DNA of 64,000 nucleotides from Centroscyllium fabricii (taxonomy: Eukaryota): the NCBI GenBank assembly GCA_051313645.2, contig JBNRSN020000016.1:3348001-3412000 (forward strand), read 5' to 3'. Both the position numbers and the translations under genes were made by a program. Shown piece by piece: positions 1 to 64,000 of the stretch. The notes under the pieces were generated by a model that saw only the letters and a program-made list of their open reading frames with translations, searched no databases and was not told the DNA's origin. Each line of letters starts with the position of its first letter. Position 1 is the stretch's first letter.

Positions 1-318
1 GCTGTGCGCAAATTGGCTGCAGTGTTTTTCCTATATTCGAAGTGACTACGCTTCAGAAGTAATTAATTGGCTGTGCAGTGCTTTGGGACGTCCTGAGTTG
101 ATGAAAAGCGCTGTATAAACGCAGGTTCTTTCTGTGTAATGGACATTGATGTTGAGTAGTTTTGAACTGAGCCTCTTCAGATTGTGGTGCTGATCTGGTG
201 ACATGAAGAGCAACACTTGGGTACGTACTTCTGTTTAGATACAGCTTTGGCAACACTGCAACCGTGCCCATGTATTGCATTATTGAGGTTGATGAGAGTG
301 GGAGCCAAGCGTGCAGCG

Positions 319-12989: not shown

Positions 12990-13790
12990 CTTCTTCTTCT
13001 TCGTGTCCATATACAAAGCTATTCAGCTTATATAACGTCCAACCAGTGCTTGGTACATTGCTGTCCCTTGATGTTGTAGAGTGCTAGGTCCTTTGCTGTG
13101 CAGGGTCCACCTAACAGAGGACATCGAAGGAGGTGCTCCATGGTCTGGGGTTCTGTGCCACAGTCACATGTGGTTGGGCCACTAAGATAACCCCATCTGC
13201 TTAGGGCTTCCCTGGAACGGCCAACACCTGAGCGGAGTCGGTTCAAACACTTCCATTTTGCCCAGTTGTTATCTCCTGGTGGGAGGGTTTCGGCAGGGGG
13301 GATGAGCATAGTCGAGCTGTGTGGGTGTTTGGACAGCTTTTCCTTCCACATTTTAAGGCGGGCTTCAGATGGTGTTGTCTCCAGTGGAGCAGTGCTGGTC
13401 AGGAAACTTCTCCGTGATTTTAGTCGGCTGGGGGCAGGTACATGGCCATGTAGGGGGTGCCTCTCATCTGTGGTTTGCCTGCGCCGCTCTGTCCTGCTGG
13501 CTACCGCTCTTCTGATGTCTGGAGGGGCGATACCTGCCAGGATGTACAGGTCGTTGGTGTTAGTGGGCTTCAGGCACCCAGTGATACATCTGCAGCTCTC
13601 GTTAAGAGCGGGGTCCAGTTTTTTAGCATGGGTGGATCTTTCCCACGCTGGGCTGGCATATTCTGCAGTAGAGAAGCTGAGGGCAAGGGCTGTGGCACGT
13701 AGTGTCTTGGGACATGCACCCCATCTGGTGTTGGCGAGTTTGCGCAGGATGTTGTTGCGGGTGCTCACTTTTGCCTTTGTCTTCATGATG
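12990..13790 (-). mobile_element. 5'-truncated Ingi/Vingi-like non-LTR retrotransposon with 13-bp TSD
   Basis: Open ORF 13028-13786 with WGA..LR..ALAL..S.AEY, ITGCL..LAGIAPP and a C-terminal CDCG..QTMEHLLRC. (GAA)n tail. TGGGATTTGAGAT occurs at both 12977-12989 and 13791-13803. Confidence 0.8.
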
Positions 13791-13809
13791 TGGGATTTGA
13801 GATGAGCTG

Positions 13810-14172
13810 AATGGACGTCGAGTACCGTCTACAAGATGCACTGCAGCAACTCGCCAAGGCTACTTCAGCAGCACCTCCCAAACCCGCAATCTTTTACCAC
13901 CGAGAAGGACAAGGGCAGCAGGCACATGGGAACACCACCAACTGCAAGTTCCCCTCCAAGAGTCTCTCACTATTCTGATTTGAAAGTGTATTGCCGTTCC
14001 TTCATCGTTGCTGGGTCAAAATCCTGGAACTCCCTTCCTAACAGCACTGTGGTAGTAACTTCAACATATGGACTGCAGCGGTTCAAGAAGGCGGCTCACC
14101 ACCTTCTCGAGGGCAACTGGGGATGGGCAATAAATGCTGGTCTTGCCAGTGATGCCCAGATCCCATGAACAA
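13810..14172 (+). mobile_element. Non-LTR retrotransposon 3' fragment (CR1/L2 group)
   Basis: SF....KSWNSLP..V......LQRFK....HL C-terminal motif, then a ggcaataaatgc...gcc 3' end. A similar short tail occurs at ~32095-32150. Confidence 0.6.
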
Positions 14173-23370: not shown

Positions 23371-24589
23371 GCCATGAGGCCAGCAACGGTTTGGATCAGG
23401 GATCGACATTTTAATGCTAACTGACCAGCAGACCAGTTGGGGCCATTAATCCTGCTGACTCGGGCTGATCACAGTCGCCTCCACATACCATCGTGTCCCA
23501 AGGGAATTCCAGTTTTCCTTCAGTCTCCGTGATCTGCGTCACTTCAATCACAGTCAGACTCTCCAGTGACTAATGGCTCATCTCTGAAATCTACTTTGGT
23601 TTTGAAATGGTGGTTTTTGTTAATTGTGGTTTTGTAAGATTTGATTTTCATAAAATTATTGGTCGCATAAATGTAATTATCCCTTTTTTAAAAAAAATTT
23701 AAAAGTTGACTCGAAGCTTTGATCATAGGAAATTGGTCTTTTCAAGAAGTTATTAATGGTGATGAGGGGCTAGTTGATGGGATAAGCAGGAGGTGCAGTG
23801 AGGTGCCAAGAACAAGATACATTTTGAAAATCACAAGAAGCAGTGACTGGGGATGGGGAAAAATGAACTTGTTGAGATTACTCACAAGCTGGCAAAAAGA
23901 ATGTTCCAGTCTGAGTAACCTCGGAACTGCGGGATGGTTTCGAGCTGTTGTTGGATTGTTGGCTCCTGATCACTTGTCCAAATCTAACATTTGGTTGCTT
24001 GCGCAAGAAAGAAGTGGTTTTAATTTGGGCAAAAAAAACCACTGGTGCTTGATGCGTGCATCCTGCTTATTTTAATAAATTGCCAAATCGTAACTTGGGG
24101 CGGGGGGGAGTCTTGCCGCTGTGTCCTGGACTTAACTGCCAGCTTCATGAATGAGGCATTTCAAAAACCTATTAATCAGTTTTGTTGCCATGCCCTGCAT
24201 GGTGTGTTTTTCCTTTCCTTTATGAAGGTATTTTTCATTAAATAAACTTTCTTTGTTTTTGAAAGCATTTTCTTCAGCAACTTATTAAAAATAAACAACT
24301 TGAGCACCTCCTTTCCCTTGCTGAAGGGATTTCAGCCCCTGCTGCAGTACGGGTTTGACGGGCAGTGATCACTCGGGTGTCTGGTGCTGGTGTACGGGTG
24401 TCGGGTGGCTCGGAGCCCAGCCTCATTCTGACCTCATTCAACGTCGGCACTTCGAGCAGGAGTCACTGCAGTCATCGGGAGCGGGAAGCCTGGCTTCCTC
24501 CTTTTAATTTGGTGGTTACCCGCCACGTAGGTTTCCCTTGTTCCCAAGCTGCTCTGTTCATGTCACTGACTGGGAGGTGGCCTTTGCAT

Positions 24590-26655
24590 CCTTGACTCCC
24601 AACGCACTCCTGGCCGACCTCCCACATTCTAGCCTCCGTAAACCTGAGCTCATCCAAAACACGGCGGCCCGTGTCCTAACTTGCACCAAGTCCCGTTCAC
24701 CCATCACCCCCTGTGCTCACTGCCCCGTGTCCGAACTCGTACCCAGTCCCGTTCACCCATCACCCCCTGTGCTCACTGCTCCGTGTCCTAACTTGCACCA
24801 AGTCCCGTTCACCCATCACCCCCTGTGCTCACTCCCCCGTGTCCGAACTCGTACCCAGTCCCGTTCACCCATCACCCCCTGTGCTCACTGCCCCGTGTCC
24901 TAACTTGCACCAAGTCCCGTTCACCCATCACCCCCTGTGCTCACTCCCCCGTGTCCGAACTCGTACCCAGTCCCGTTCACCCATCACCCCCTGTGCTCAC
25001 TGCCCCGTGTCCTAACTTGCACCAAGTCCCGTTCACCCATCACCCCCTGTGCTCACTCCCCCGTGTCCGAACTCGTACCCAGTCCCGTTCACCCATCACC
25101 CCCTGTGCTCACTGCCCCGTGTCCTAACTCGCACCAAGTCCCGTTCACCCATCACCCCCTGTGCTCACTGCCCCGTGTCCTGACTCGCACCAAGTCCCGT
25201 TCACCCATCACCCCCTGTGCTCACTGCCCCGTGTCCTGACTTGCACCAAGTCCCGTTCACCCATCACCCCCTGTGCTCACTGCCCCGTGTCCTAACTCGC
25301 ACCAGAGCCCAGTTCAACCATCACCCCCTGTGCTCACTGCCCCATGTCCTAACTCTCACCAAGTCCCGTTCACCCATCACCCCCTGTGCTCACTGCCCCG
25401 TGTCCTAACTCACACCCAGTCCCGTTCACCCATCACCCGCTGTGCTCACTGCCCCGTGTCCTAACTCACACCCAGTCCCGTTCACCTCTCACCCCCTGTG
25501 CTCACTGCCCCGTGTCCTAACTCGCACCGAGTCCCGTTCACCCATCACCCCCTGTGCTCACTGCCCCATGTCCTAACTCGCACCGAGTCCCGTTCACCTA
25601 TCACCCCCTGTGCTCACTGCCCCATGTCCTAACTCGCACCGAGTCCCGTTCACCCATCACCCCCTGTGCTCACTGCCCTGTGTATAACTCACACCGAGTC
25701 CCGTTCATCCATCACCCTCTGTGCTCACTGCCCCGTGTCCTAACTCACACCGAGTCCCGTTCATCCATCACACACTGTGCTCACTGCCCCGTGTCCTAAC
25801 TCACACCCAGTCCCGTTCACCCATCACCCCCTGTGCTCGCTGCCCCGTGTCCTAACTCACACCCAGTCCCGTTCACCCATCACCCCCTGTGCTCGCTGCC
25901 CCGTGTCCTAACTCACACCCAGTCCCGTTCACCCATCACCCCCTGTGCTCACTGCCCCGTGTCCTAACTCACACCCAGTCCCGTTCACCCATCATCACCC
26001 CCTGTGCTCATTGCCCCGTGTCCTAACTCACACCCAGTCCCGTTCACCCATCACCCCCTGTGCTCGCTGCCCCGTGTCCTAACTCACACCCAGTCCCGTT
26101 TACCCATCACCCCCTGTGCTCGCTGCCCCGTGTCCTAACTCTCACCCAGTCCCGTTGACCCATCACCCCCTGTGCTCGCTGCCCCGTGTCCTAACTCACA
26201 CCAATTCCCGTTCACCCATCACCCCCTGTGCTCACTGATCTACGTTGGTTCTCGGTTAAGCAATGCCTCGATTTCAAAATTCTCATCCTTGTTTTCAAAT
26301 CCCTCCATGGCCTTGGCCCTCTCTATCTCTAAATTCTTCCAGCTCCACAACCCCCGAGATATCGGCGCTCCTCTAATTCTGCCCTCTTGAGCATCCCTGA
26401 TTATAATCACTCCACCATTGGTAGATCTTCTGTTGCCTGGGCCCTAAGCTCTGGAATTCCCTGCCTAAACCTCTCCACCTCTCTCTTCCTCTTAGACACT
26501 TCTTAAAATCTCCCTCTTTGACCAAGCTTTTGGTCACGCCCTAATTTCTCCTTATGTGGCTCGGTGTCAAATTTTTTGTCTTATTATACACCTGTGAAGC
26601 ACCTTGGGATGTTTTACTACCTTAAAGGTGCTATATAAATACAAGTTGCTGTTGT
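24590..26655 (+). mobile_element. L2 LINE 3' fragment containing an expanded minisatellite
   Basis: NALLADLP..LIQNTAARVLT before the array; L2 sequence and an L2 tail (aaggtgctatataaatacaag) after it. Confidence 0.8.
24669..26237 (+). repeat. 56-bp minisatellite, ~28 copies
   Basis: Unit ccgtgtcctaactcgcaccaagtcccgttcacccatcaccccctgtgctcactgcc. Confidence 0.95.
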
Positions 26656-45086: not shown

Positions 45087-47249
45087 TGGAATATCCAAGG
45101 CCGACGCTCTTATGTGTTTGGTTTGAACAGCAGGACCCCAGAGTTCTTAGAGGAAATCAAAGATCTGGACATTATGATTTTGCAAGGAGCCTGGTGTAGA
45201 GGAGAATGGTCCACTGGGTGTCCCCCTGGGTACACAGAGTTGGTGGTTCCCTCCAATAAACTGCCAGGCGTAACCCAGGGTAGAGTGACTCAGGAGGCAT
45301 GTTGATTTGGCTTAAAGCAGAGATTAGGAATTGCATTGAATTTATAATAAAGGGCGAAAATCATATGTGGCTCAAGATTAAGAAAGACAATTTCTAGCAG
45401 GCAGAATGTTTTTATCTGCACAATCTATATCCCCCCTATAGAATCCCCATACTCCAAAGAGGACACCTTCCCCAACATTGAGAGAGAGATGAGCCATTTC
45501 CAGGCCCTTGGAAATGTGTTGATCTGTGGTGATCTCAACTCAAGAACTGGTGAAGAATCAGACTTTATCAGTTCTCGGGGGAATAATTACATATTTGGGA
45601 ATAACCATTTTGATCTTCCTTCTCGTTCACACAGGAATAATTACGACTAACAAACAAACGCAAATGGAAAGCAGCTCCTGCAGCTCTGTCGAAGCCTGGG
45701 TCTGTACATTGTCAACGGTAGGTTCAGAGGGGACTCTCTAGGAAGATCAATCTACTCTTCACCTCTTGGCACCAGCACCGTAGACTATATGATTACGGAT
45801 CTGGATCCATCCTCTTTCAGAGCATTCACAGTCAAACCACAAACACCTTTGTCAGATCACAGCCAAATTACTGCGTATATCAAAAGGGCAGAAACAACCA
45901 ACACAGAAACACAGCCCAGTAAGCTGTACAACATTTAAAAATCACACAGATGGGCCCAAAGCAGCACTGAAAAATACCAAAAAGCGACTGACTGCTAATT
46001 GCTTTTTGGTATTTTTCAATCAACTCAATCTCTCTTAGGCACCTTTCTGGAAAACACATACACCCACAATAAAGAAGGCGTAAATCTGGCAGTGAACAAC
46101 ATAAATCATATTTTTGATAATTTGGCATCAATGTCCGACTTGAAATTTTCCCAGAATAAATCCAAAACACAAAATCACAAAAAATGGTTTGATTCAGACT
46201 GTCATAACAGGAGGAAAAAACTCAGAAAAATATCAAACCAAAAACACAGACAACCAGAAAATGAGGAATTAATGTCAGGCACTAACACTAACACAATATA
46301 AAAACACACTCCGAACCAAGAAAGAACAGTATATTAAGAAAAAACTCAGCGTCATTGAAGAATCTATTCATTCTAATTGTTTCTGGGACAGCTGGAACAC
46401 ATTACACAAAAAGCAACAAGATGAATTGCCCATTCAAAATGGAGAGATATGGGAAAACCATTTTGAATGGGCAATTCATCTTGCTGCATACTAAACGAGA
46501 TGCTTAAACACACTGACAGTAAATTGAAATTGGCTATCCTGAAACTCTTCAACTTGGTTCTGAGTGTCGGTTACTTCCCTGATGTCTGGAACAAAGGACT
46601 CATGATGCCCATATATAAAAGTGGAGACAAACTCGACCCAAATAATTACTGAGGCATCTGTGTGAACAGTAATCTGGGGAAGGTATTCTGTAGTATAAAC
46701 AAAAGACTTACAAACTTTCTTACGGAGCACAATGTCCTGAGTAACAGCCAAATTGGATTCTTACCAAATTATAGAACATCTGACCATATTTTCACCCTAC
46801 ACACCCTAATTGACAAACATGTCCACCAAAACAAAAGCAAAATTTTTGCCTACTTTATAGATTTCCAACAGGCATTCGATTCTATTTGGCACGACGGTCT
46901 ATTCTTAAAACTTATTGAAAGTGGGGTAGGGGGAAAAACATACTGTAATGATATTGAGACTTCTGGCAGGAAGTCGGATGAACTCTGCTTATGAACTTCC
47001 AGTGACATCATTTCCTGTACATGTCACTTCCTGTGTAGTAGTATAAATTCTGCTACTATTCAGTCTGAGATAATGCTTCTCTATGTAAATATGTTAAAAC
47101 TCTCAACTCTGTAAATAGCTGATTAAAGCTTTGCTTAAAGTATTTGATGTGTAAGTCGCTTTTGTCACATCAATTTAATCAGCTACTACGCTCAAAATTT
47201 TTGACACCTTCGGACAAAAAGGAACTGAGGACCCAGGGAACCACCCATC

Positions 47250-48154
47250 ATGGAGAGCCTCTTCAAACCCAGAACTCTTGACCTGGATCCGAACTCGCCA
47301 TCAGCCGCAAAGGTATGGAAGCACTGCTACCATACTTTTGAAAATTTCCTGGAAGAATGTGGTGCGAGTGATACTGCTAAACTCCGGCTACTGGTAAACT
47401 ATGTATCCCCTAACGTGTATGAATATCTGGACAATTGGGATAACTTTAATGAAGCAATCCGAGCTCTTAAAGAACTGTATACAAAGCCACCCAACGAGAT
47501 TTATGCTAGACATATACTGGCCACAGCCCGGCAAGGGCCGGAGGAATCTATCGGTGAATTCCTGCAGACACTGCGCAGGCTCAGTACGAACTGTAACTTT
47601 CAGGCAGCCTCGGCCGCGCTTTACCGTGAGGAAATGATCCGCGATGCCTTCATCAGCGGGATTTCCTCCCCACTGATACGCCACTGGAGAGTAAGGCCCT
47701 AGAGTTGCAAAAAACTTTCGAACTGGCTTGCTCTCTTGATCTAGCAAAAAGAAACTCAGATCTTTATCAGTGGCCCAGAGCTCGAAGTGCTGCTGTAACT
47801 TCAAGCAGACCTTTCAAGGGGCCACAGGTGAACCCAATCATAGACGACTCTAGCCCTGATGAGCTTAGTGATGAGGAGGAGGATGACCCTACACTAGCAG
47901 CCTCTTGGCAGTCCAGGAAAAACTGCTTCTTTTGTGGAGATATCTTCCACCCAAGAAAATTCTGCCCAGCCCGTAATGCAATCTGCAGCTACTGCAGCAA
48001 AAAAGGGCACTTTGCAAAGGTGTGCCAATCCAGAACTTCTGCACGAGCTAATCAAGCTAGGCCCTACAGAGCTGCTCCAATTAGGGCCTACCAGGGTGCA
48101 TCAATTAGGCCCTATCAAGACGCACCAGCCAGGACCTATCAGGCTCCCACTTGA
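47250..48154 (+). pseudogene. Gypsy gag (frameshifted near 47690-47705), with tandem zinc knuckles
   Basis: ARQGPEESIGEF..LRRL...C.F and IRDAFISG capsid-like motifs; CFFCG..HPRKFC and CSYCSKKGHFAKVC knuckles. Confidence 0.85.
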
Positions 48155-48193
48155 AGGAGCTCGTCTAGAATCACTGCTGCACTCTGTGCTATC

Positions 48194-51022
48194 ATGCCAA
48201 TAACAGCTGCATGCCCTCAGAATCTGGTCCAGGCAGCCACAAGGGTCACAATTAATGGATATGCTTTTGATGCCCTAATTGACTCTGGTAGCACCGACAG
48301 CTTTATTAAGGGGCAAATCGTTAAAAAATTGAAACTGCACACTTATCCATCAGACCAGGCAATTGCAATGGCCCAATCTTCTCTTAATACTAGAATCTCG
48401 GGCTTCTTTATTGTGGACTTAACCCTTAATGGGCGCCTGTATCCCTCCACCCGTCTCTCAGTCCTTAAGGATCTATGTAGTGATATAATTCTGGGACTAG
48501 ATTTCCAAAGACAACATAACAAGCTGACCATTGAGTTCGGGGGTTCTAAACCCGGACTCATTATCTCTAAATCATCCAAAACGCCATTTTGTGCACTGTC
48601 AGCAGCCTCTCTGGACGAACCATCGTTATTTACCAGCGTTATGCCTCAGTGCAAGCCGATAATAACTAAGTCTCGGCGCTTTAGTCAGGAGGATCGATCC
48701 TTCATTAATACAGAAATCTCTCGACTCCTGGCCGAGGACATCATTGAACCTTGTTCATCGCCTTGGCGGGCTCAGATTGTCATTGTTAAAAACTCTTTGA
48801 AACCTCAGAAGAAACGCCTATGTATCGATTACTCTCAGACCGTTAATCTATATACAGATTTGGATGCTTACCCACTGCCACGTATCGATGATATGGTGAA
48901 TAAACTGGCTGAATATTCTGTATTCTCAACTTATGACCTGCAGAGTGCTTACCATCAGGTACCCCTACGGGCCTCGGATAAGAAATATACAGCCTTTGAG
49001 GCTAACGGACGATTGTATCAATTTTGCCGTCTCCCATTCGGAGTCACCAACGGAGTAGCCGTCTTTCAACGAGCCATGGATGGCTTGGTGAAGCAAGAAG
49101 ACTTGAGGGACACTTTCCCTTATCTCGACAATATTACGGTTGCTGGCCATGACCAACAAGAACATGACGACAACCTTCGAAGATTTCGGGATGCACTTTA
49201 TCGTCGCAATCTGACTTTAAATGAAACCAAATCCGTGGAATCACAGCCAACCATTAATATTCTCGGCTACTGTGTGGGTAATGGCATCATCAAGCCTGAT
49301 CCTGAAAGACTTCGGCCCCTCCAGGAGCTTCCTCCACCTAACAGTCCTGCTTCCTTGCGTCGGGCCCTCGGCCTATTTGCCTACTATGCGAAGTGGATTC
49401 CGGATTTTTCTGACAAAATTCAACCTTTGTTGAATGCCAGGACATTTCCATTAGGAACAATGGCCATTACAGCCTTTACTACCCTTAAACAACATTTGAA
49501 GACAGCAACCCTCCACTCCATCGATGAGAACCTTCCATTCGTGGTCGAATGTGACGCTTCAGAGGTGGCGATCTCAGCTACCCTCAATCAGGAAGGTCGC
49601 CCTGTAGCTTTCATGTCTAGGACCCTACAGGGTGCCGAAGTGCACTATCCACCGGTGGAAAAAGAAGCCACGGCCATCATTGAGGCTGTACGAAAATGGA
49701 ACCATTTTTTAGCTCGCCGACACTTCACGCTGATAACGGACCAGCGATCAGTAGCGTTCATGCTGGACAATCGCAAAAGAACCAAAGTCAAGAACAATAA
49801 AATACAACTGTGGAGGATGGAATTGGCCTCTTTTGGCTATACTATTCACTATCGCCCTGGTAAAGATAATGTGGCCCCGGACACTCTTACTCAAGCATTC
49901 TGCGCTGCTACATCACCCTCCACTCTCGCAGATATTCATGATGGATTATGTCATCCTGGTGTGACACGTATGTTACATTTTGTAAGGTCACGAAATCTCC
50001 CATTCTCAACCGGAGACATCAGGAAAATGTGTTCGGAATGCAGAACCTGTGCTGAGCTAAAACCCCACTTTTTTCGGCCCCCTGATGGTGTACTTATACA
50101 TGCGACACAACCAATGCAACGACTGAGCATTGATTTTAAGGGCCCAGTACCCTCGTCCACTAGGAACATATATCTGCTTACGATGGTCGACGAATATTCA
50201 CGTTTCCCATTCGCCTTCCCCTGCTCTAATATGCTGTCTTCCACAGTAATCAATTGTCTCGAACAGGTATTCACGCTCTGTGGCATGCCAGCTTACATCC
50301 ATTCGGATCGGGGTCCATCTTTCATGTCCACTGAACTTAAGGACTGCCTCTCGGAAAGAGGTATCGCGACAAGCAAAACAACACCATACCACCCCATCGG
50401 TAACGGCCAGGTAGAACGATATAATGGCATCATATGGAACTCTGTACGCCTTGCCCTGAAATCCCAGGGTCTACCCAACCAGCAATGGGAGATGGTGTTA
50501 CCAGATGCATTGCACTCCATACGGTCCTTGCTTTCCACAGCCACGAACACGACGCCTCATGAACGGTTCTTCAGTTTCCAGCGTCGCTCATCGTATGGAG
50601 CATCACTCCCTTCATGGCTGACCACTCCAGGGCCCGTATTGCTCCGGAGATATGTCCGAACCTCCAAGCATAACCCTCTTGTGGACGAGGTAGAACTAAC
50701 GGAGGTCAACCCCACCTACGCTCACATACGACACCCTGACGGACGAGAGTCTACAGTATCGTTGCGGGACCTGGCACCCTGCCCATCAGGACCTAGAGGG
50801 TCATCTAGGGATAATACCCTACCGGGAACCTCCAGAGAACCACTAGGTACCACTCTTCAGGACCCCGATCAGGCACCAATGACCTTTGAGCCAGTAGGAT
50901 CCCGCACTCGGAGCTTCGACTCACCTGGTACCTCATTCCAGGATGCTGCTCAATCCTCGACTGACACGGAGCCCATAGGGGCTCGTACGCGGAGTCATGA
51001 TCCTCTCTGTGCCCCATGCTAA
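48194..51022 (+). CDS. Gypsy pol polyprotein (protease, RT, RNase H, integrase)
   Basis: LIDSGS (PR); LPFG..YLDN (RT); ECDAS..EKEA..TDQ (RH); HHCC plus IDFKGP..VDEYSR..SDRG..NGQVER (IN). 942-aa open frame. Confidence 0.93.
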   Translation: MPITAACPQNLVQAATRVTINGYAFDALIDSGSTDSFIKGQIVKKLKLHTYPSDQAIAMAQSSLNTRISGFFIVDLTLNGRLYPSTRLSVLKDLCSDIILGLDFQRQHNKLTIEFGGSKPGLIISKSSKTPFCALSAASLDEPSLFTSVMPQCKPIITKSRRFSQEDRSFINTEISRLLAEDIIEPCSSPWRAQIVIVKNSLKPQKKRLCIDYSQTVNLYTDLDAYPLPRIDDMVNKLAEYSVFSTYDLQSAYHQVPLRASDKKYTAFEANGRLYQFCRLPFGVTNGVAVFQRAMDGLVKQEDLRDTFPYLDNITVAGHDQQEHDDNLRRFRDALYRRNLTLNETKSVESQPTINILGYCVGNGIIKPDPERLRPLQELPPPNSPASLRRALGLFAYYAKWIPDFSDKIQPLLNARTFPLGTMAITAFTTLKQHLKTATLHSIDENLPFVVECDASEVAISATLNQEGRPVAFMSRTLQGAEVHYPPVEKEATAIIEAVRKWNHFLARRHFTLITDQRSVAFMLDNRKRTKVKNNKIQLWRMELASFGYTIHYRPGKDNVAPDTLTQAFCAATSPSTLADIHDGLCHPGVTRMLHFVRSRNLPFSTGDIRKMCSECRTCAELKPHFFRPPDGVLIHATQPMQRLSIDFKGPVPSSTRNIYLLTMVDEYSRFPFAFPCSNMLSSTVINCLEQVFTLCGMPAYIHSDRGPSFMSTELKDCLSERGIATSKTTPYHPIGNGQVERYNGIIWNSVRLALKSQGLPNQQWEMVLPDALHSIRSLLSTATNTTPHERFFSFQRRSSYGASLPSWLTTPGPVLLRRYVRTSKHNPLVDEVELTEVNPTYAHIRHPDGRESTVSLRDLAPCPSGPRGSSRDNTLPGTSREPLGTTLQDPDQAPMTFEPVGSRTRSFDSPGTSFQDAAQSSTDTEPIGARTRSHDPLCAPC

Positions 51023-52472
51023 AATGCCAATGGGCCATCGACAAGCTTGGTACCTTCTCCCGACCAAGGGCAGATCAACTCTGAACCTGTTGGATCTCGC
51101 ACACGGAGCCATGATTTCCACTACCCATCGCCGGGTAATCCAGGCCATGTTGGATTTGACCCAGATTCGAAGACCCGCAAACGGCCCAGTAACTCAGACA
51201 TTGACCATCAAGACAGTCTACCAACCCAAGAGAGCGAACTTAAACGTATGCGGCTCCTCATACAACTGCTTCAGAATATTTGATTTCTGCCTCATAATCT
51301 TCTAGGAGGGAAGAATGTAATGATATTGAGACTTCCGGCAGGAAGTCGGATGAACTCTGCTTATGAACTTCCAGTGACATCACTTCCTGTACATGTCACT
51401 TCCTGTGTAGTAGGATAAATTCTGCTACTATTCAGTCTGAGATAATGCTTCTCTATGTAAATATGTTAAAACTCTCAACTCTGTAAATAGCTGATTAAAG
51501 CTTTGCTTAAAGTATTTGATGTGTAAGTCGCTTTTGTCACATCACATACGATGTAATTAAATCAATGAACACAGGTAACAAATGTGCAGTTAAAATCAGA
51601 GACAAACAAACAAAATATTTCTCACAGGGTCGTGGCGTGGCACAGGGCTCGTCTAACTCACTGACTCTTTTTAATATTTATATAAATAAACTGGCAAAAC
51701 TACTGGAACAATCTACAGCACCTGGCCTCGCCCTACATGACTCTGAGGTTAGATTCCTCCTCTATGCAGATGATCTGGTTCTGCTGTCACCAACAGAAGA
51801 GGGTCTACAGCAGAACCTTGATCGGCTAGAGTCGTTCTGCCAGAATTGGGCCTCGACAATAAACCCCCAAAAAACTAAAGTTCTTGTGTTCCAGCAAAGA
51901 TCCAGACATCAGGGAACCAAAACAAACTTCACACTAGGAGCAACTAAAATGGAACAAACTACAAACTATACCTACTTAGGCTTAAAAATCAGTTCCACGG
52001 GAAATTTTCATTTGGCTGTGAATGAACTGAAAGAGAAAGCAAAAAGGGCTTTCTATGCCATTAAGAAGTCAATCCAAATAGAAATTCCAATTGGCATTTG
52101 GATCAAAAAAATTTAATCAGTAATTGAACCAATCGCACTTTATGGCAGTGAGGTGTGGGGTCTGCTAACACACCACGAATTTGCAAAATGGGACAAACAC
52201 CTAATTGAGACTCGACATGCTGAATTCTGTAAGAGTATCCTCCGGACTCAGAGGAAAACCACAAACAATGCATGCAGGGCAGAGTTAGGCCAATATCCAC
52301 TATTAATTAATATCCAAAAAAGAGCCATCAAATTTGGAAAACATCTAAAATTGAGCAACCCCCACAGCTATCACTACAAAGCCCTGAAATGCCAAGAAGC
52401 GAACATAAAGAAAAGTCCCCTCAGCCAACTGGTCCTGGGACTCAGCGAAGTAACTACTAACACTATTGGTAA

Positions 52473-53258
52473 TGGCCCTGTCACACCTTGACATTTTAGC
52501 CAGCGTATGCAAATTTGGCTAAAACGCTGGGTTACATCGGATACGTTATGGGTACGTTTTGCATACGTTAAGAGCACGCTGGCATACGCTGGCCATAAGT
52601 TGCATACGTCGTTGTACTCCGAGTAAGTCGAGAAATTTTGAGCATGCACAAAATTTCTCGACGTACCTTGCGTATGATTCACACGTTCCGCATACGCTGG
52701 CCATACGTTGTAGGCACGTTAGGCGATCGTTGACACACGTCGACACATGTTACTTGTAAGTTAGTCATAAGTCAAAATACGTCGAGATAATGTCTAGCGT
52801 ACCCGGAACTTATTTCTAACCTATGAGTAACGTGCTTTGAACCTATGTGTAACGTATCTCCAACGCATATTGACGTATTTGACGTCTTCCGGACGACCAC
52901 AGAACTTATGCCCCTGTCATGCCCTGTCACACCTTGACGATTTAGCTAGCGTATGCCGACGTATCAAAATTTATCTAAAACATCGGCGATACGCTGCCGC
53001 GCGCTATGCATACATTAGACTATCGTTGGGCATAAGTTGTGAACGCCGACAACACGCTAAGCATTCGTTGGTATAAGTTATCTGTAACTTATCGAAACGT
53101 TCTGTGTACGTTACTAATACGTTATGCATACGTTATGCGTACGTCCAACTCGTTATGAATACGCTATTATACGGCCAAAACTGAAAAAAACATCGATAGT
53201 TCAGCGTTTTAGCCAAATTTGCATATGCTGGCTAAAACGTCAAGGTGTGACAGGGCCA
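52473..53258. mobile_element. PIF/Harbinger-like MITE, ~57-bp TIRs, TAA TSD
   Basis: TAA|TGGCCCTGTCACACCTTGAC...GTCAAGGTGTGACAGGGCCA|TAA. The empty-site sequence ggTAAcaacc is visible in unit F. Confidence 0.85.
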
Positions 53259-54224
53259 TAACAACCAGCCCCAGGACAGTGACATCCTAGCCCACAGAAT
53301 TTGACCCAACACAATTATTACTAAACAAAGAGAAAAATATTTGACATACTGGACAGAAACGACAAAAACCCAAAACAAACTAGATTGTTATTTGGCCCTA
53401 AACAGACAGTACACCATGGCTGATTACCTGACCATGGTGAAAGATAGCAAACTGAGAAAAACCCTGACAATGTACAGACTTAGTGAGCACAGCCTAGCCA
53501 TCGAAAAAGGCAGACACAGAAAGACTTGGCTGCCCAGAGAGGAAAGGCTGTGCTCCCACTGCAGTCAGAGAGTGGTATAGACAGAGCTGCACTTCCTCAC
53601 AACTTGCGAAAACTATCAGGGAATAAGGGGAAATTTCTTCCCAAAATTTGTAACATGCCCTGAATTCAAAAATTTGAACGACCACCAAAAACTCCCATAT
53701 CTATTGGGGGAACAGAGGGACTGTATAAAATTAGCGGCAAACTACGTCACAGCTTGCCATAAGCAGAGGGACAACCAGTGACCATTGAAGCTAGGAAGAG
53801 CATACAAGATCTATATGCGGGTATATATGTATGTGTTTGCATAGTTATTCATTCAACACGTCTGGTTATGCATTTGTATGTCCAATTGTATATGTTCTTT
53901 TTAGATCTACATGTGGGTTTTTATGTGTATGTGTATGCATAGTTATTCATTCAATACGTCTGGTTATGCATTTATATGTCCAACTGTATATGTTCTTTTT
54001 CTGTGCTTTGGCAACATAGGATGTATCTTGTCATNNNNNNNNNNNNNNNNNNNNNNNNNNNNNNNNNNNNNNNNNNNNNNNNNNNNNNNNNNNNNNNNNN
54101 NNNNNNNNNNNNNNNNNNNNNNNNNNNNNNNNNNNNNNNNNNNNNNNNNNNNNNNNNNNNNNNNNNNNNNNNNAGAGAGGGAGAGTCAGATAGAGAGAGT
54201 GTGAGAGAGAGAGAGTGAGAGAGA

Positions 54225-54755
54225 CTCAGTAACCATAATCTAGAAATAGAAAAGGGACGCCATAGGAAGCACTGGAAACCAAGAGAGGAGAGGATATGTA
54301 AAAACTGTGATTCAGGAGAGATAGAAACGGAATTCCACTTTCTTCTCTCATGCCCAACATATGAATCTCTCAGAAGGGCTTTCCTAAGTCAAGTTAGAAA
54401 CAGTATCCCATCATATGACAGCAAAACATGTGATGAAAAAATACGCATATGTCTGGGAGAAACATCAGAACTTCTCGAGTTAGCTGCAGAATATGTGACA
54501 GCATGCCATGATGCAAGAGAACACTTGAACATTGGACATCTCAGTCCCAATCTGATCACAGCTAAACCACTGTGACAAACTGCATTTAAACTATATATCT
54601 ATTGATATTATTACTGATGCTGTTGTATATATTCTGTTTGTACTGTTGTTATTACGTCTATTAATGTACTATTTTTGTGTATATTACAATGCTTTGGCAA
54701 CAACGGTTGATACCATTCATGCCAATAAAGCTATTTGAATTTGAATTTGAATTTG
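54225..54755 (+). mobile_element. RTE-X-like unit C (3' fragment)
   Basis: LSNHNLEIEKGRH..REERICKNC...ETEFHFLLSC, 3' stem-loop and (ATTTGA)n tail. Confidence 0.82.
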
Positions 54756-54830
54756 TGAGAGAGAGTCAGAGAGAGAGAGCGAGAGCCAGAGAGAGAGAGT
54801 GAGTGAGAGAGTCAGAGAGAGTGAGAGAGA

Positions 54831-57800
54831 CAGGGAAATGTGCTACTATGTAGGGACCTGAATGCGAGGACCGGATGTGAACCCGATTACATAGACCCAC
54901 ATGGCAACAACCATGTGTTCGGTCAAACCCCCTTGTACGTCACACCAACCATCACCAACCGGAACAACCTTGACTGTGAAATAAATAAAAGTGGCAGAGA
55001 GGTAGTGCATCTCTGTCGAGCCTTAGGCCTGTACATAGTTAATGGTAGGTTCAGAGGGGACTCGCAGGGGAGGTTCACATATTCCTCAGCTCTTGGGTCT
55101 AGCGTGGTGGACTATGCAATCACTGACATGGACCCCTGTACTATCAGTGCATTCACTGTTAGGCAGCAATCCCCTCTCTCAGGCCATAGCCAAATCAATG
55201 TGTACCTAAAATCTTCTGTTCAAACTAAAGACATAAAAAAGGAGCCCAGTAAGCTGTATAAAATAAATCAGACATACAGATGGGCTCCAGACAGTGGAGA
55301 TAAGTTCATCATGGCCCTGAATACACCTGACCTCACAAATAAAATATCAAAATTCAAGATAAACCTATATGAGACTACCAGAGATGGTGTAAACATGGCC
55401 ATAGATGACATCAACATGATCTTTCACAGGGCAGCTATTAAAGCTGACCTTGTGAAACAGAAAAGAAAAATTATTAAAAAATACAACCATGAAAAATGGT
55501 TCGACCACGAGTGCAAAAGTGTCAGGAAAGATCTGAGAAGGATATCGAACCAAAAACACCACCAACCAAACAACCCAGACTTGCGTATTAGATATAATGA
55601 AACTCTCAAAAGATATAAACACACTACTAGGAACAAAAAACAAAATTACACCCACAAAAGACTTGAAGAGATTGAAAACTCCATAGATCAAAACCAATTC
55701 TGGGATATGTGGAATAATCTGAGCACAACAAAACCACAAACATTACCAATTCAAGATGGTGATATCTGGAGAGCACATTTTGAAAACCTATATAAAGACA
55801 TCCCAATAAATAAAATAAACTCAAATTACTCTCATACCAAAGAAAAACTCCAAGCATTAGAAACAACAATTAAAGACTACCAAAACCCTCTCGACTTCCC
55901 GATTACTTCGGAAGAATTGGTCACAAAAATAAAATCTCTCCACTCAAAGAAAGCCTGTGGTACAGACATCAAAAATGAAATGCTCAAGTACAGCACTCCA
56001 GAGATGCAGGACGCAGTGCTCAGGCTATTCAACCTCATATTACGTTCGGGCTATTTTCCTGATAATTGGTGTCAAGGGCTTATTTCGCCCATTTATAAGA
56101 GCGGAAACAAATCAGACCCAAACAATTACCGTGGCATCTGTGTCAGTAGTTGCCTAGGGAAGTTATTCTGCAGTATTATAAATAGTAGAATGCAGGATTT
56201 CCTTAGCAAACATAATATCCTCAGTAAAAACCAAATTGGCTTCCTTCCGAAACACCGCACCACTGACCATATCTATACCCTTCACACTCTCATTGGAAAA
56301 CATATACACCAAGCAAAAAATGGTAAAATATTTGCATGTTTTATTGACTTTAAGAAAGCATTTGACTCTATATGGCATGAAGGGCTCTATTACAAACTTC
56401 TCCATTGTGGTATAGGAGGAAAGGTATATGACCTTATTAAATCAATGTATCTGAACAATAAATGTAGTGTTAAAATTGGGGACAAATGCACTGGTCTCTT
56501 CACCCAGGGGAGAGGCGTCCGGCAAGGCTGCAATCTGAGCCCGACACTGTTTAATGTGTATATAAACGATTTGGCAGTAAAGTTGGACCAGAGCGCAGCG
56601 CCGGGCCTCCGTCTTCTGGACGGAGAGGTAAAATCCCTGTTTTATGCGGATGACCTGGTTCTGCTGTCTCCCACAGAACAGGGACTGCAGCAACAGTTAG
56701 ATCTACTCGATGAGTACTGCCAAAATTGGGCCCTGACAGTAAATCTGAAGAAAACCAACATCATGATTTTTCAAAAAAAAAACAGATGTCAGGAAGACAA
56801 ATACCAATTCACTCTTAAAGATACCATTATCGAACACGCTATGAGCTACACTTACCTTGGTCTAACCATTGCAGCATCAGGGAGCTTCAGCATGGCAGTG
56901 AATGCACTAAAAGAGAAAGCTCGAAGGGCTATGTATGCAATCAAAAGAAAATTCTACAACATCCAAATTCCAATTAAAATCTGGCTTAAAATATTTGATA
57001 GTGTAATCCAACCCATTGCGCTTTATGGTAGTGAAGTATGGGGTTCGCTCAGTCATCATAGTTATGTTAAATGGGAAAAACACACAGTGGAGGCCCTACA
57101 TGCGGAATTTTGCCGGAGCATCCTCCGCACCCAAAGGAAAACACCAACAAACGCATGTAGGGTGGAATTAGGCAGATACCCACTGATAATAAATATCCCA
57201 AAAAGAGTATTAAATTTTTGGAATCACCTTAAATCTAGTCCCCCAGACTCCCTCCAGTTTAAAGCCCTCCAAACCCAAGAGCGGAACCCAGAAAAGAGTC
57301 CCCTGTGTCAGTTGGTATTGAGACTAACTACCCCTACTCAGTCAAACCTTGACCAGTCTCAGATCAACACTGCTTTCCAAACACCAATTAGAGTGGACCA
57401 AATCATCAAAAAATGCAAAGAAACCTATTTGGAACATTGGGATAAAGCAACCAAAAACCAAAGCAGATTAGAATGTTACCGTGCCCTAGAAAGAGATTAT
57501 AAATTGGCAGACTATCTTTCAACTGTCAGAAATATAAAGCAGAGACAGACCCTCACCAGGTACAGACTAAGTGACCACCAGTTGGCAGTCGAAAAAGGAA
57601 GACAGAAGAAATCCTGGCAGCCAAGAGAAAATAGAATATGCGGTCACTGCTTGACAGATGAGGTTGAAACAGAGATGCACTTCCTCCTAAAATGCAAAAA
57701 ATTCAACAAAACAAGGAGAACCTACTTTGACAAACTAAGCCTGGCAATCCCAGATTTCAAAGAACTAGATGATATCTTAAAAGTAAGAATAATCCTTGGC

Positions 57801-58147
57801 GAGGGAAATAGGGCACAGCTTGGTGCACAATACGTAACAGCATGCTACAACCTGAGAGACAGTGAATGACCAACATGCACACATGCACGCACACACAAAC
57901 AGAGACTAATCAACACTAATTATTATACTGTTTGAAACTGCAATGACATGTAGCAACCGAAAAAAGGTTACAGATGTGTATATATATATATATATATACA
58001 CATATATACAGGGGCATATCTGCCCATACATTGTATACCTGTATCTGTATCTGTATTTATGCATTTTAACTATGTATGTTATGTTTTATACTTTGGCAAC
58101 ATAGGGATATATCCTGTCATGCCAATAAAGTTTTTAAATTGAAATTG
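54831..58147 (+). mobile_element. RTE-X-like unit D, 5'-truncated with an uninterrupted 1009-aa ORF (54840-57869)
   Basis: Partial APE (DLNAR, VDY), RT (IDFKKAFDSIWH, GVRQG, FYADD) and C-terminal CGHC..HFLLKC. Confidence 0.88.
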
Positions 58148-58195
58148 AGTGAGTCAGGCAGAGAGAGAGAGTGTGAGAGAGTCAGAGAGAGAGAG

Positions 58196-60290
58196 CTCAT
58201 TTTACGTGCAGGCGATTTTCCAGATATCTGGTGCCAAGGGCTTATCTCGCCCATCTATAAGAGCGGAAACAAATCAGAACCAAACAATTACCGCGGCATA
58301 TGTGTCAGTAGCTGCCTAGGAAAGCTATTCTGCAGTATTATAAATAGTAGAATGCAGGATTTCCTCAGCGAACATAATATCCTCAGTAAAAACCAAATTG
58401 GCTTCCTCCCGAAACACCGCACCACTGACCATATCCATACCCTTCACACTCTCATCGAAAAACATATACACCAAGTAAAAAATGGTAAAATATTCGCCTG
58501 CTTTATTGATTTTAAGAAAGCATTTGACTCTATCTGGCATGAAGGGCTCTACTACAAACTTCTCCATTGCGGTATAGGAGGAAAGGTATACGACCTCATC
58601 AAATCAATGTATCTGAACAATAAATGTAGGGTTAAAATTGGGGACAAATGCACTGGTCTCTTCACCCAGGGGAGAGGCGTCCGACAAGGCTGCAATCTGA
58701 GCCCGACACTGTTTAATATATATATAAACGATTTGTCAGCAAAACTAGAACAGAGCACAGCGCCGGGCCTCCGTCTTCTAGACGGAGAGGTTAAATCACT
58801 GTTCTATGCGGACGACCTGGTTTTGCTGTCTCCCACAGAACAGGGACTGCAGCAACAGTTAGATCTACTCGATGAGTACTGCCAAAACTGGGCCTTGACA
58901 GTAAATCTAAAGAAAACAAACATCATGATTTTTTTTAAAAAAAACAGATGTCAGGAAGACAAATACAAATTCACCCTTAAGGATACCATTATCGAACACA
59001 CCATGAGCTACACTTACCTTGGTCTAACCATTACAGCATCAGGGAGCTTCAGCATGGCAGTGAATGCACTAAAAGAGAAAGCTCGAAGGGCTATGTATGC
59101 AATCAAAAGAAAATTCTACAACATCCAAATCCCAATTAAAATCTGGCTTAAAATATTTGATAGCGTAATCCAACCCATTGCGCTTTATGGTAGTGAAGTG
59201 TGGGGTTCGCTCAGCCATCATAGCTATGACAAATGGGAAAAACACACAATGGAGGCCCTACATGCGGAATTCTGCCGGAGCATCCTCCGCACCCAAAGGA
59301 AAACACCAACAAACGCATGTAGGGCGGAACTAGGCAGATACCCACTGATCATAAATATCCAAAAAAGAATATTAAATTTTTGGAATCACCTTAAATCTAG
59401 CCACCCAGACTCCCTCCAGTTTAAAGCACTCCAAACCCAAGAGCGGAACCCAGAAAAGAGTCCCCTGTGCCAGGTGGTGCTGAGACTAACTACCCCTACC
59501 CAGTCAAACCTTGACCAATCTCAGATCAACACTGTTTTCCAAACACCAATTAGAGTGAACTAAATTATCAAAAAATGCAAAGAAAAATATTTGGAACATT
59601 GGGAAAAAGCAACAAAAAACCAAAGCAGACTAGAATGCTACCGCTCCCTAGAAAGAGACTATAAATTGGCAGACTATCTTTCAACTGTCAGAAATATAAA
59701 GCAGAGACAGACCCTCACCAGGTACAGACTAAGTGACCACCAGTTGGCAGTCGAAAAAGGAAGACAGAAGAAATCCTGGCAGCAAAGAGAAAATAGAATA
59801 TGCGGTCACTGTTCGACGGATGAGGTTGAAACAGAGATGCACTTCCTCCTAAATTGCAAAAAATTTAAAAAAACAAGGAAATCATACTTTGACAAACTGG
59901 GCCTAGAAATCCCAGATTTCAAAGAATTAGATGATACCCTAAAACTAAAAATAATCCTTGGCGAAGGAGACAGGGCACAGCTTGGTGCACAATACGTAAC
60001 AGCATGCCACAACCTGAGGGACAATGACTGACCAATATGCACACATGCACGCACACACAGGCAGAAAATGACCAACATTGACTGTGATATTGATTGAAAC
60101 TGCATTTAAGCTATATATCTACTGATATTACTACGGATGCGGCTGTATATACTCTGTTAGTACTGTTGTTATTACGTCTAATAATGTATTTTATATATAT
60201 GTTATAAATGTATTTCTATGTATGTTAAAATGCTTTGGCAACAAAGGTTGATACCATTCATGCCAATAAAGCTATTTGAATTTGAATTTG
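58196..60290 (+). mobile_element. RTE-X-like unit E, 5'-truncated, one premature stop at 59561-59563
   Basis: Closely similar to unit D in the coding region; (ATTTGA)n tail. Confidence 0.88.
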
Positions 60291-60346
60291 AGTGTGTGAG
60301 AGAGTCAGAGAGAGAGTGTGAGAGAGTCAGAGAGAGAGAGTGTGAG

Positions 60347-60381
<35 letters not shown>

Positions 60382-60588
60382 CGGAGAGAGTGTGTGAGAG
60401 AGTCAGAGAGAGAGTGTGAGAGAGTCAGAGAGAGAGAGTGTGAGAGAGTCAGAGAGAGTGTGAGAGAGTCAGAGAGAGAGAGTGTGAGAGAGTCAGAGAG
60501 AGAGTGTGAGAGAGAGAGAGAGTCAGAGAGAGAGAGTGTGAGAGAGTCAGAGAGTGTGAGAGAGAGAGAGAGTCAGAGAGAGAGAGTC

Positions 60589-60619
<31 letters not shown>

Positions 60620-60625
60620 GAGAGA
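60291..60625. repeat. (GA)n microsatellite with GTCA/GTGT interruptions
   Basis: The same satellite type occurs at 43740-43880, 44242-44306, 54174-54224, 54756-54830 and 58148-58195. Confidence 0.95.
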
Positions 60626-61795
60626 CTCATTGAAAGTGGGATGGGGGAAAACATACGATGTAATTAAATCAATGTACACAGGTAACAAATGTGCAGTTAA
60701 AATCGGAGATAAACAAACAAAATATTTCTCACAGGGTCGTGGCGTGGCACAGGGCTCGTCTATCTCACCGACTCTTTTTAACATTTATATAAATAAACTG
60801 GCAAAAATACTGGAACAATCTACAGCACCTGGCCTCGCCCTACATGACTCCGAGGTCAAATTCCTCCTGTATGCAGATGATCTGGTTCTGCTGTCACCGA
60901 CAGAAGAGGGTCTATGGCAGAACCTTGATCGGTTAGAGTCATTCTGCCAGAATTGGGCCTTGAAAATAAACCCCAAAAAAATTAAAGTCCTTGTGTTCCA
61001 GCAAAGATCCAGACATCAGGGAACCAAAACAAACTTCACACTAGGAGCAACAAAAATCGAACAAACTACAAACTACACATACTTAGGCTTAAAAATCAGT
61101 TCCACGGGAAATTTTCACTTGGCTGTGAATGAACTGAAAGAGAAAGCTAAAAGGGCTTTCTATGCCATTAAAAAGTCAATCCAAATAGAAATTCCACTTG
61201 GCATTTGGATCAAAATTTTTAATTCTGTAATTGAACCAATTGCACTTTATGGCAGCGAGGTGTGGGGTCTGCTAACACACCACAAATTTGCAAAATGGGA
61301 CAAACACCCAATTGAGACCCTACATGCTGAATTCTGTAAGAGTATCCTCCGGACTCAGAGGAAAACCACAAACAATGCATGCAGGGCAGAGTTAGGCCAA
61401 TATCCACTATTAATTAATATCCAAAAAAGAGCAATCAAATTCTGGAAACATCTAAAACTGAGCAACCCCCACAGCTATCACTACAAAGCCCTGAAATGCC
61501 AAGAAGCGAACATAAAGAGAAGTCCCCTCAGCCAACTAGTCCTGGGACTTAGCGGAGTAACTACTAACACTACTGGTAACAACCAACTTAGCGGAGTAAC
61601 TACTAACACTACTGGTAACAACCAACTTAGCGAAGTAACTACTAACACTACTGGTATCAACCAGCCCCAGGACAGTGACATCCTAGCACTCAGAATCCGA
61701 CCCAACACAATTATTACTAAACAAAAAGAAAAATACTTGAATTACTGGACAGAAATGACAAAAACCCAAAACAAACGAGATTGTTATTTGGCCCT
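60626..61795 (+). mobile_element. RTE-X-like unit F (same subfamily as B), interrupted by a Gypsy element
   Basis: ORF 60630+ is nearly identical to 51545-53400 once the MITE is removed. Confidence 0.88.
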
Positions 61796-64000
61796 TGTAG
61801 TATCGTCGATTACTCCAATTAAAAGATGACAAGTAGATACCGAAACTAAAAGGCTTTTAATTGCTAAACAATGGAGCTACTCTCCAGACGAACAACTGTA
61901 CAGAACAGGGTGGAGCCACACCTATATAGAGGCTCACAAGGGGAGGAGTTGGGGGTGTGGCTGACCTGGCTCCCAACAAGATTACAGTAAACAGGGCTGT
62001 GCCCAACATCTGCACAGCCCATAATTAGTCATGGTAATACATTGGAATAACTGTGGAATATAGTGGAATAGAACGGTTACCACATTCACCCCTTCTTAAA
62101 AACTTTGAGTCCAGGGGGGTGAATGGATCGAACAGTTCATTATAAGACGGTCCAGCGGTAGTTTCTTCCTGGAGGACTGTCGGCGCACCGGTGTTGGAGG
62201 TGATGCCTCCATGGTTGAATAGTCCGCCTCTGCCGGCGCTGTGACTTCCGGTGGCGGTGTGCTCGTCGGGTCGCAGTCAGGGAAACTCGGGGGCAATCCT
62301 GTGTCTGGTGGGTGAACAACTTGATGGCCGGCGGGGGGTGCTGTCGTGGTGTTTCCGGCCGGGGCCAGGTCCCTGATGGACACGGTGTCCTCACGCCCGT
62401 CTGGGAACTGCACGAAGGCGTAGTGCGGGTTGGCGTGTAGTAGCTGTACCTTGTCCACCAGGGGGTCCGTTTTGTGGCTCCGGACGTGTCTCTTAAGTAA
62501 AACCGGCCCCGGAGTCGTCAGCCATGGGGGAAGGGCTGTTCCCGAAGTAGACCTCCTGTGGAACGAAAAAATGAGATCATGCGGAGTGGCGTTAGTAGCA
62601 GTACACAACAGTGATCGGATAGAGTGCAGCGCATCTGGGAGGACTGCCTGCCAATGGGACACTGGAAGGCCTCTGGACTTGAGAGCCAGGGTGACCGCCT
62701 TCCAGATGATCCCATTCTCCCTTTCTACCTGGCCATTCCCCCGGGGGTTATAACTGGTCGTTCTGCTCGTGGCAACCCCTCTCTGGAGCAGAAACTGGCG
62801 CAGTTCATCGCTCATGAACGATGACCCCCGGTCGCTATGGATGTAGCCGGGGAGACCGAAAATGGCGAACAGCGTGGTGAAGTGTTTGATCACCGTTGCG
62901 CTCATCATATCTGGGCAGGGGAAAGCGAAGGGGAAGCGGGAGAACTCATCCACTACCGTGAGGAAGTATGAGTTGCGGTCAGTGGAGGGGAGGGGGCCTT
63001 TGAAGTCTACGCTGAGACGTTCAAAGGGGTGGGTGGCCTTGATGAGATGCGTCGTGTCTGGCCGGAAAAAGTGGGGTTTGCACTCGGCACAGACAGGGCA
63101 CTCTCTGGTTATATCCTTGATCTCTGTGATGGAGTAGGGGAGGCTACGGGATTTGACGAAATGGGCGAGTCTGGTGACACCCGGGTGACAAAGGCGGTCG
63201 TGGAGGTCCTTCAGCCGGTCTAGCTGGGCACTGGCGCACGTTCCCCTGGACAGTGCGTCCGGGGGTTCATTGAGTTTACCTGGTCGGTAAAGAATGTCGT
63301 ACTCGTAAGTCGAGAGTTCGATCCGCCACTGCAGGATCTTATCATTCTTGATTTTACCCCGTAGTTTATTATTAAACATAAACGCCACCGAACGTTGGTC
63401 GGTGAGCAGGGTAAAACGCTTACCGGCCAGGTAATGACGCCAGTAGTGCACGGCCTCCACAATGGCCTGAGCCTCCTTTTCCACTGCAGAGTGGCGAGTC
63501 TTGGGTCCCTGTAGGGTGTGGGAGAAAAACGCTATGGGCCTGCCTGCCTGATTCAGGGTGGCAGCAAGGGCAAAGTCCGAAGCGTCGCTCTCCACCTGGA
63601 AGGGAATGGATTCATCAACAGCGAGCATGGTCGCCTTGACGATGTCTTCCTTTATCCTTGCAAAAGCCGTCTGGGCTTCTGCAGAAAGGGGGAAGGCGGC
63701 AGCCTTGAGAAGTGGTCTAGCCTTATCTGCGAACTGTGGGACCCATTGTGCATAATAGGAGAAAAATCCTAGGCATCTCCTCAAGGCTTTGGGGTTGTGA
63801 GGTAGGGGCAGTTCTTGCAGGGGTCGCATACGCTGTGGGTCGGGGCCGAGGAGCCCGTTCTCCACCACGTATCCGAGAATGGCGAGCCGGGTTGTATTAA
63901 AGACACATTTGTCTTTGTTATACGTAAGGTCCAGCTTGTCCGCCGTGGCGAGGAATTTGGCCAGATTGGCATTGTGGTCCTGCTGGTCGTGGCCGCAGAT
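61796..64000 (-). mobile_element. Second Gypsy element (3' LTR 61796-62084, PPT, pol RT-RH-IN), running off the window
   Basis: ORF 62096-63868 is homologous to the 48194-51022 pol. PPT gaaggggtgaa (minus strand) precedes a TG..CA LTR. Confidence 0.92.

Follow-up and report, generated by a model that had tools for sequence, protein, structure and literature searches.

The window analysed here is a 64,000-nucleotide stretch of the Centroscyllium fabricii genome, and it carries two Gypsy elements, referred to below as elements 1 and 2. Element 1 has the TG...CA LTR pair, target-site duplication, polypurine tract and pol domain order (protease-RT-RNase H-integrase) of a Ty3/Gypsy LTR retrotransposon, and its nearest solved relative is Ty3. 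Its parts are located as follows.

46939..46943 (left) and 51545-51549 (right), + strand: target-site duplication CATAC, flanking element 1
46944..47172, + strand: 5' LTR, 229 nt, TG...CA ends, family D15
47250..48154, + strand: gag, with two zinc-knuckle motifs at about 47924-48025
48155..51022, + strand: pol, with protease, RT, RNase H and integrase (Pfam)
51304..51315, + strand: polypurine tract
51316..51544, + strand: 3' LTR, 229 nt

The two LTRs are 99% identical, and the family is young and abundant. The gag gene is broken by a frame break near 47630-47702 and by an in-frame stop at 48152-48154, and it had no match in Pfam. The initial annotation described a double-knuckle gag and an element lacking a chromodomain, and this description holds, since both zinc knuckles are present in gag and Pfam returned no Chromo match in either element of the window. 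Among the matches listed, 40 of 40 LTR and 150 of 150 RT matches of family 1 were at 98-100% identity. The family is also nearer to invertebrate and other homologues (70-90%) than to the group of element 2 in the same genome (58%), and from these identities horizontal transfer of family 1 is possible.

Element 2, which belongs to the same clade and is 58% identical to element 1 in RT-RNase H, lies on the opposite strand and continues beyond the window.

61791-61795: target-site duplication AGGGC of element 2
61796..62084, - strand: 3' LTR
61855..61868, - strand: predicted self-primer, 3' LTR copy
62096..64000, - strand: pol (RNase H, integrase), running off the window
contig position about 3414480-3414800, beyond the window: 5' LTR and 14-nt self-complementary site

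The 5' LTR of element 2 ends in CC, not CA, and its two LTRs are 94.6% identical overall, with an 11-nt indel between the 5' and 3' copies. In its LTR group (L165-L177, L184 and L021, the last being element 2 itself), a small GGAG...CTCC hairpin is conserved immediately 5' of the primer segment. U5 of this group also contains a second, incomplete copy of the primer site, with which the hexamer could pair in the context of the 3' LTR. Many LINE fragments (RT and endonuclease frames, labelled by eye) occupy window positions 202-5035, 13028-13828, 46500-46943 and 51545-61829, with an esterase-like frame, also labelled by eye, at 4358-5035, and the two Gypsy elements have inserted into LINE copies that are related. 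A target-site preference was considered and rejected, as the flanks of 20 family-1 copies were unrelated by eye. The window also contains a tandem array of a 56-nt unit at 24521-26335.

At the position downstream of the 5' LTR where a primer-binding site (PBS) is expected, element 1 carries a sequence complementary to its own LTR.

47116..47127, + strand: predicted self-primer, with ATTAAA (47122-47127), the predicted poly(A) hexamer, as its 3' end; the cut is predicted to follow 47127
47174..47185, + strand: primer-binding site, without TGG, that pairs with the element's own LTR

The LTR is followed by one A (47173) and then by TTTAATCAGCTA (47174-47185), which is the exact reverse complement of TAGCTGATTAAA (47116-47127), inside the LTR. 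The exact 12-nt complement, the missing TGG site and the overlap with ATTAAA had all been pointed out in the initial annotation, and each is borne out in the sequence. When the LTR was shuffled with dinucleotide content preserved, none of 2000 shuffles reached 12 nt (mean 5.3, maximum 10), and the 25 nt past the 3' LTR, used as a control, paired over 4 nt only. The own-LTR complementarity of element 1 is thus confirmed. It had further been predicted that a site matching its own LTR would be found past the 5' LTR of the second element, and the sequence found there was TTTTAATTGCTAAA, with 14 bp of pairing. This site differs from that of element 1, as does the segment of its own LTR with which it pairs perfectly, over a length that none of 2000 LTR shuffles attained. 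The corresponding motif noted earlier in the 3' LTR of element 2 is also present, at 61868-61855, although the coordinates first given for it were about 2 nt off.

Pairing was then evaluated across a clade sample of 35 elements in 16 LTR groups. Protein-based scans gave 93 loci, and direct repeats were found in 27. Clade LTRs fit for use came from 16 of these (3 of them truncated at a contig end), and 3 belonged to a tRNA-primed, Gmr1-like lineage in which RT-RNase H adjoins the 3' LTR. The other 8, being assembly overlaps or repeats unrelated to the clade, were excluded. The sample from the shark's own genome comprised 34 matches to two LTR-end patterns, 1 protein match and 5 chromodomain matches, and LTR pairs were obtained for 16, 1 and 2 of these, respectively; for the pattern matches, this means a full LTR pair around pol within the stretch taken. 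LTR ends were corrected by hand in about a dozen elements.

Relatives without LTR-PBS complementarity had been named as evidence that would count against self-priming; what was found was covarying own-LTR pairing of at least 10 perfect bp in 31 of the 35 clade elements, and of at least 12 bp in 30. Selection by a pattern that forces 5 bp of pairing applied to 16 of the 35, and among the elements selected without a DNA pattern, 17 of 19 paired with their own LTR over at least 10 bp. In the cross-group control, 17 of 1088 pairs reached 10 bp, and the flank past the 3' LTR paired over 3-7 nt. The elements that fell below 10 perfect bp were L071 and L072, which are old copies with one mismatch, and L155 and L166. 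A TGG tRNA site was absent in all 35, and the clade sites included 23 distinct 12-mers. The remaining 74 loci were divided into 28 that could be located by gag, 42 without a gag start, and 4 too near an end. An inverted repeat of 10-18 bp preceded gag in 18 of the 28 gag-located loci, some of which are copies of families counted already, compared with 0 of 28 control windows, and in the other 10 the repeat was shorter than 10 bp.

The clade duplex is 12-18 bp long. In an alignment of 31 distinct rows, with the register set to maximise pairing, positions 1-12 (counted from the inner end) were paired in 30-31 rows and position 12 in all 31, while beyond this point pairing extended to position 13 in 27 rows, 14 in 18, and 15-16 in 13. 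Between 2 and 5 pair types were seen at positions 4-9 and 12. Compensatory changes were common in the clade, and double changes were found even between close relatives (L025 and L050, L150 and L159, element 1 and L146). The inner end of the duplex is fixed, as the site begins 1 nt past the LTR in most elements and the 3' end of the segment points towards U5. From the 3' end of the paired segment to the LTR end there are about 37-65 nt (77 in L064), and the last bases of the segment are usually TTAAA(A), followed by GC(C/T) or ACC. The LTR-PBS pairing is real and extends across the clade, and it is very likely functional.

Homologous proteins at 57-76% identity came from hosts that include cnidarians, crustaceans, a nematode and cartilaginous fishes, and an annotated homologue exists in Nematostella; no relatives were found in viral contigs. 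Animal-type Gypsy elements also turned up in contigs of bacterial metagenome-assembled genomes (L102-L113), where they are most likely host DNA contaminating the bins. To place the clade, we rely on a carefully searched RT-RNase H tree of 24 rows, with which a 52-row tree from a quick search only agrees. The focal clade had support of 100/100, and the chromoviruses, also at 100/100, formed a separate branch, consistent with the earlier view that element 1 is not a Gypsy of the Tf1/sushi type. It was apart as well from Mag-like, CsRn1-like and Gmr1-like elements of the same genome, labels that, unlike the chromovirus label, were assigned by characteristic motifs and domain order. The Mag-like branch (96/97) excludes the focal clade, and the link between the two is weak (72/60). 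A sister relation with the chromoviruses, represented by those of the same genome only, was not rejected (p-AU 0.126), which leaves an independent origin of self-priming no more than possible. TGG sites were present in those tRNA-primed Mag-, CsRn1- and Gmr1-like controls for which an LTR pair was available (L108, L110, L113, L224, L271 and L273). A degenerate tRNA-site pattern had given 20 stretches, mostly unusable, although some of the RT matches were included in the first tree. Across the whole genome (7.2 Gb), the two LTR-end junction patterns had 12,696 and 78,256 matches, and the reversed-pattern controls 145 and 1,335, indicating that the clade is extremely abundant.

The position of the paired segment within the RNA depends on where transcription starts, and two candidate promoter elements lie upstream of it in element 1.

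47042..47048, + strand: canonical TATA box (TATAAAT), kept in sister families L146 and L183
47086..47092, + strand: second TATA-like element (TAAATAT), 31 nt before A47117

The initial annotation placed the start near 47116, downstream of a TATA-like tgtaaata. This motif exists (47084-47091), but the canonical box at 47042 had been missed, and it is the canonical box that is kept in the sister families, the TATA-like element at 47086-47092 being absent from both. The canonical box predicts a start at about 47062-47072, which is 45-55 nt upstream of the paired segment. Of 19 own-genome elements, 18 had a TATA 62-95 nt ahead of the segment by a loose pattern, which was chosen post hoc with the sequences already seen. 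Under a strict score, 13 of the 19 had a TATA 64-90 nt upstream of base -11 (counted back from the predicted cut), and a TATA 25-35 nt from that base was limited to 2, one of them element 1. An initiator-like TCATT or TCAGT was found 29-32 nt past the TATA, and 37-44 nt before the segment, in 11 of 18 elements, which represent 3 LTR groups only, and in element 1 such a word lies only 20 nt past the TATA. No TATA at a fixed place was found in most metagenome relatives. Logan contigs aligned to the element displayed no poly(A) tails and no transcript starts or ends, which favours neither reading. A TATA far upstream, together with duplexes of up to 18 bp, suggests that the RNA starts upstream of the segment and that the primer is probably internal, and a start near 47116 is accordingly doubtful, despite the TATA-like element at -31 and a conserved AG described below.

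The alternative is a 5'-terminal primer of the Tf1 type, in which the RNA would start at A47117, its first 11 nt would be cut off as the primer, and the upstream TATA and initiator would drive another transcript. Several observations fit this idea. The bases before the predicted cut are conserved as AG regardless of the length of the A-run (A at -11 in 28 of 31 rows, G at -10 in 29 of 31), which agrees with an 11-nt primer in an initiator-like context; 11 nt is the length of the Tf1 primer, as given in the accessible part of PMC7175516, and Tf2 uses alternative starts, according to that of PMC5341516. The same length was found in two chromodomain Gypsy elements of this genome that served as controls.

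L160: C933:135095500-135105000
L161: C1266:4102500-4112000

Both carry an exact 11-nt self-primer that begins 29 nt past a TATA, the spacing expected of a 5'-terminal primer of the Tf1 type, and is separated from the LTR end by about 410 nt. There is a compensatory change between the two families, and, with the focal clade, two putatively self-priming lineages coexist in the genome. In these controls pairing stops at 11, unlike in the clade, where positions 12-13 covary and several relatives pair over 15-18 bp, and an RNA starting at A47117 would not contain these additional bases. Since a TATA at the required distance is also limited to 2 of 19 own-genome elements and is missing from the sisters of element 1, we consider the 5'-terminal primer less likely than the internal one.

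The RNA fold around the duplex was also predicted.

47128..47141, + strand: small hairpin directly 3' of the predicted cut (predicted fold)
47144..47173, + strand: U5 stem-loop that stacks on the primer duplex (predicted fold)

Positions 47110-47190 were predicted to fold as a three-way junction (z -5.16), with none of 200 shuffles as stable, and the local duplex of element 1 had a predicted probability of 0.95. Across the 16 groups, the first three bases past the cut were more paired than in shuffles in 13 representatives, while the fold between the cut and the LTR end showed no general gain in stability over shuffles (mean z -0.5, 9 of 16 below 0). The hexamer of element 1 had a predicted unpaired probability of 0.06 in the 5' context versus 0.82 in the 3' LTR context, so the duplex may additionally serve to mask the poly(A) signal; most elements have ATTAAA or AATAAA inside it. 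If the pairing did nothing but hide the 5' LTR poly(A) signal, priming would fall to a tRNA fragment or other host RNA. We regard this as very improbable: L056, L104 and L105 keep the pairing with a second AATAAA outside the duplex, showing that masking cannot be the sole function, and L064 and L024 keep it with no canonical hexamer inside. Moreover, the site sits where the control lineages carry their TGG tRNA sites, and a single host RNA could not follow 23 different 12-mers (the host tRNA genes found by our search were Cys and Lys only). Least probable of all is a primer from the 3' LTR copy, in which the 3' end of the same or a co-packaged RNA would pair with the site and be trimmed after the hexamer, because, even though both LTRs carry the segment, the poly(A) signal puts it near the RNA 3' end, and upstream bases would always be included and explain duplexes longer than 11 bp, the 5' copy is only about 37-65 nt from the site with its local duplex strongly predicted, and trimming would presumably deprive that RNA of the R stretch on which its strand transfer depends.

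We therefore return to the internal primer. Self-priming in some form is highly probable for the clade, and the proposal of tRNA-independent self-priming in a non-chromovirus Gypsy, as first made for element 1, is supported at the sequence level by the site of the second element, the covariation and the tree. For element 1 itself, we lean towards a primer taken from an internal R segment of the RNA, 12-18 nt long and ending in the predicted poly(A) hexamer. Transcription would start about 40-55 nt upstream of the paired segment, and the RNA would fold back, pairing the 12-18 nt that end in the TTAAA(A) hexamer with the site past the LTR. By analogy with Tf1, RNase H would cut after the last A. 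The capped fragment left by this cut, about 50-65 nt in length, would prime from its 3' end a strong-stop DNA of about 40-65 nt. The short part of R that lies 3' of the cut and 5' of the poly(A) site could then serve for strand transfer. As a side effect, pairing would hide the poly(A) signal in the 5' LTR and leave that of the 3' LTR free.

A broader proposal can be offered only tentatively, namely that this is a second form of Ty3/Gypsy self-priming, independently evolved and present in animals as far apart as cnidarians and vertebrates, with the poly(A) signal as the primer 3' end and one duplex that silences the 5' signal and, after an internal cut, yields a long capped primer. If it is true, copies of this genome numbering in the tens of thousands would owe their origin to poly(A)-signal self-priming. 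Self-priming in a large animal clade outside the chromoviruses would in itself mean that tRNA independence is far commoner than recognized, has possibly evolved twice, and presumably escapes silencing by tRNA fragments directed against primer sites. An internal primer overlapping the poly(A) signal would represent a novel arrangement, in which control of the 3' end is coupled to priming. Since the site is self-complementary and not a tRNA site, annotation tools report no primer site in these elements.

Repbase curators have reportedly annotated some animal Gypsy families as self-primed, which makes prior notice plausible. Nothing corresponding to the clade turned up in the literature on Smaug, Saci-2 and Cigr-1/CsRN1 or by an RT motif. 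We found no paper on self-priming in a non-chromovirus animal Gypsy clade, in a search that included the accessible parts of PMC3601003, PMC6934838, PMC8220671, PMC12440569 and PMC2864245 and that left most subscription papers and Repbase notes outside. MolGy and PolGy are large non-Mag, non-chromovirus animal Gypsy clades for which no primer type is given in the available portions of their descriptions (PMC6238403, PMC8556966), and the focal clade may belong among them. Saci2 has 4-bp duplications, versus 5 bp in the focal clade, and tRNA primers are assigned to it in the part available of PMC12471100, whose supplement text, to the same extent, makes no mention of the primer sites.

Among the lineages compared, Mag is the neighbour of the focal clade in the tree, by a weak link. 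What we take to be the Mag layout (A/B and C clades), with a double zinc-knuckle gag and a compact single frame, resembles the focal elements. The Mag-like elements of the same genome, however, form their own branch, carry TGG tRNA sites (L271, L273), and are 27-31% identical to the focal clade. To our knowledge, experimental proof of self-priming exists for Tf1 only. There is thereby a precedent for self-priming as proposed for the focal clade. Tf1 primes with the first 11 nt of its RNA, released by RNase H (PMC7175516, PMC4600332, as far as accessible), which cuts between bases 11 and 12 (PMC7175516). Self-priming has been described for Tf1/sushi chromoviruses, plant Tcn1 and TAR copia elements (PMC6317226, accessible part), so that within Gypsy the published cases we could consult are confined to the Tf1/sushi/Tcn1 chromoviruses. 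In the TAR lineage of plant Ty1/copia (Houba, Osr-1), which belongs to another superfamily and another host kingdom than the focal clade, it was predicted from LTR complementarity alone (PMC6317226).

The closest parallel is with Tf1 and Tf2 of Schizosaccharomyces pombe, Tj1, Tf1/sushi and Tcn1, which, like the focal clade, have no tRNA site and a post-LTR sequence that pairs with their own LTR; in the Tf1 group, as in element 1, a predicted U5 stem adjoins the duplex. The focal elements differ from Tf1/sushi in lacking a chromodomain, in their separate branch, and in being only about 30% identical in RT-RNase H to the chromoviruses of the same genome. They differ from chromoviruses also in duplex length (12-18 bp, not 11) and in the distance of the segment from the LTR end (about 37-65 nt, not about 410), and, in contrast to the Tf1 type, their segment overlaps the predicted poly(A) hexamer and is probably internal to the RNA. 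What is new here is thus a probable case of Tf1-type self-priming outside the chromoviruses, with a primer that probably lies inside the RNA, over the predicted poly(A) signal.
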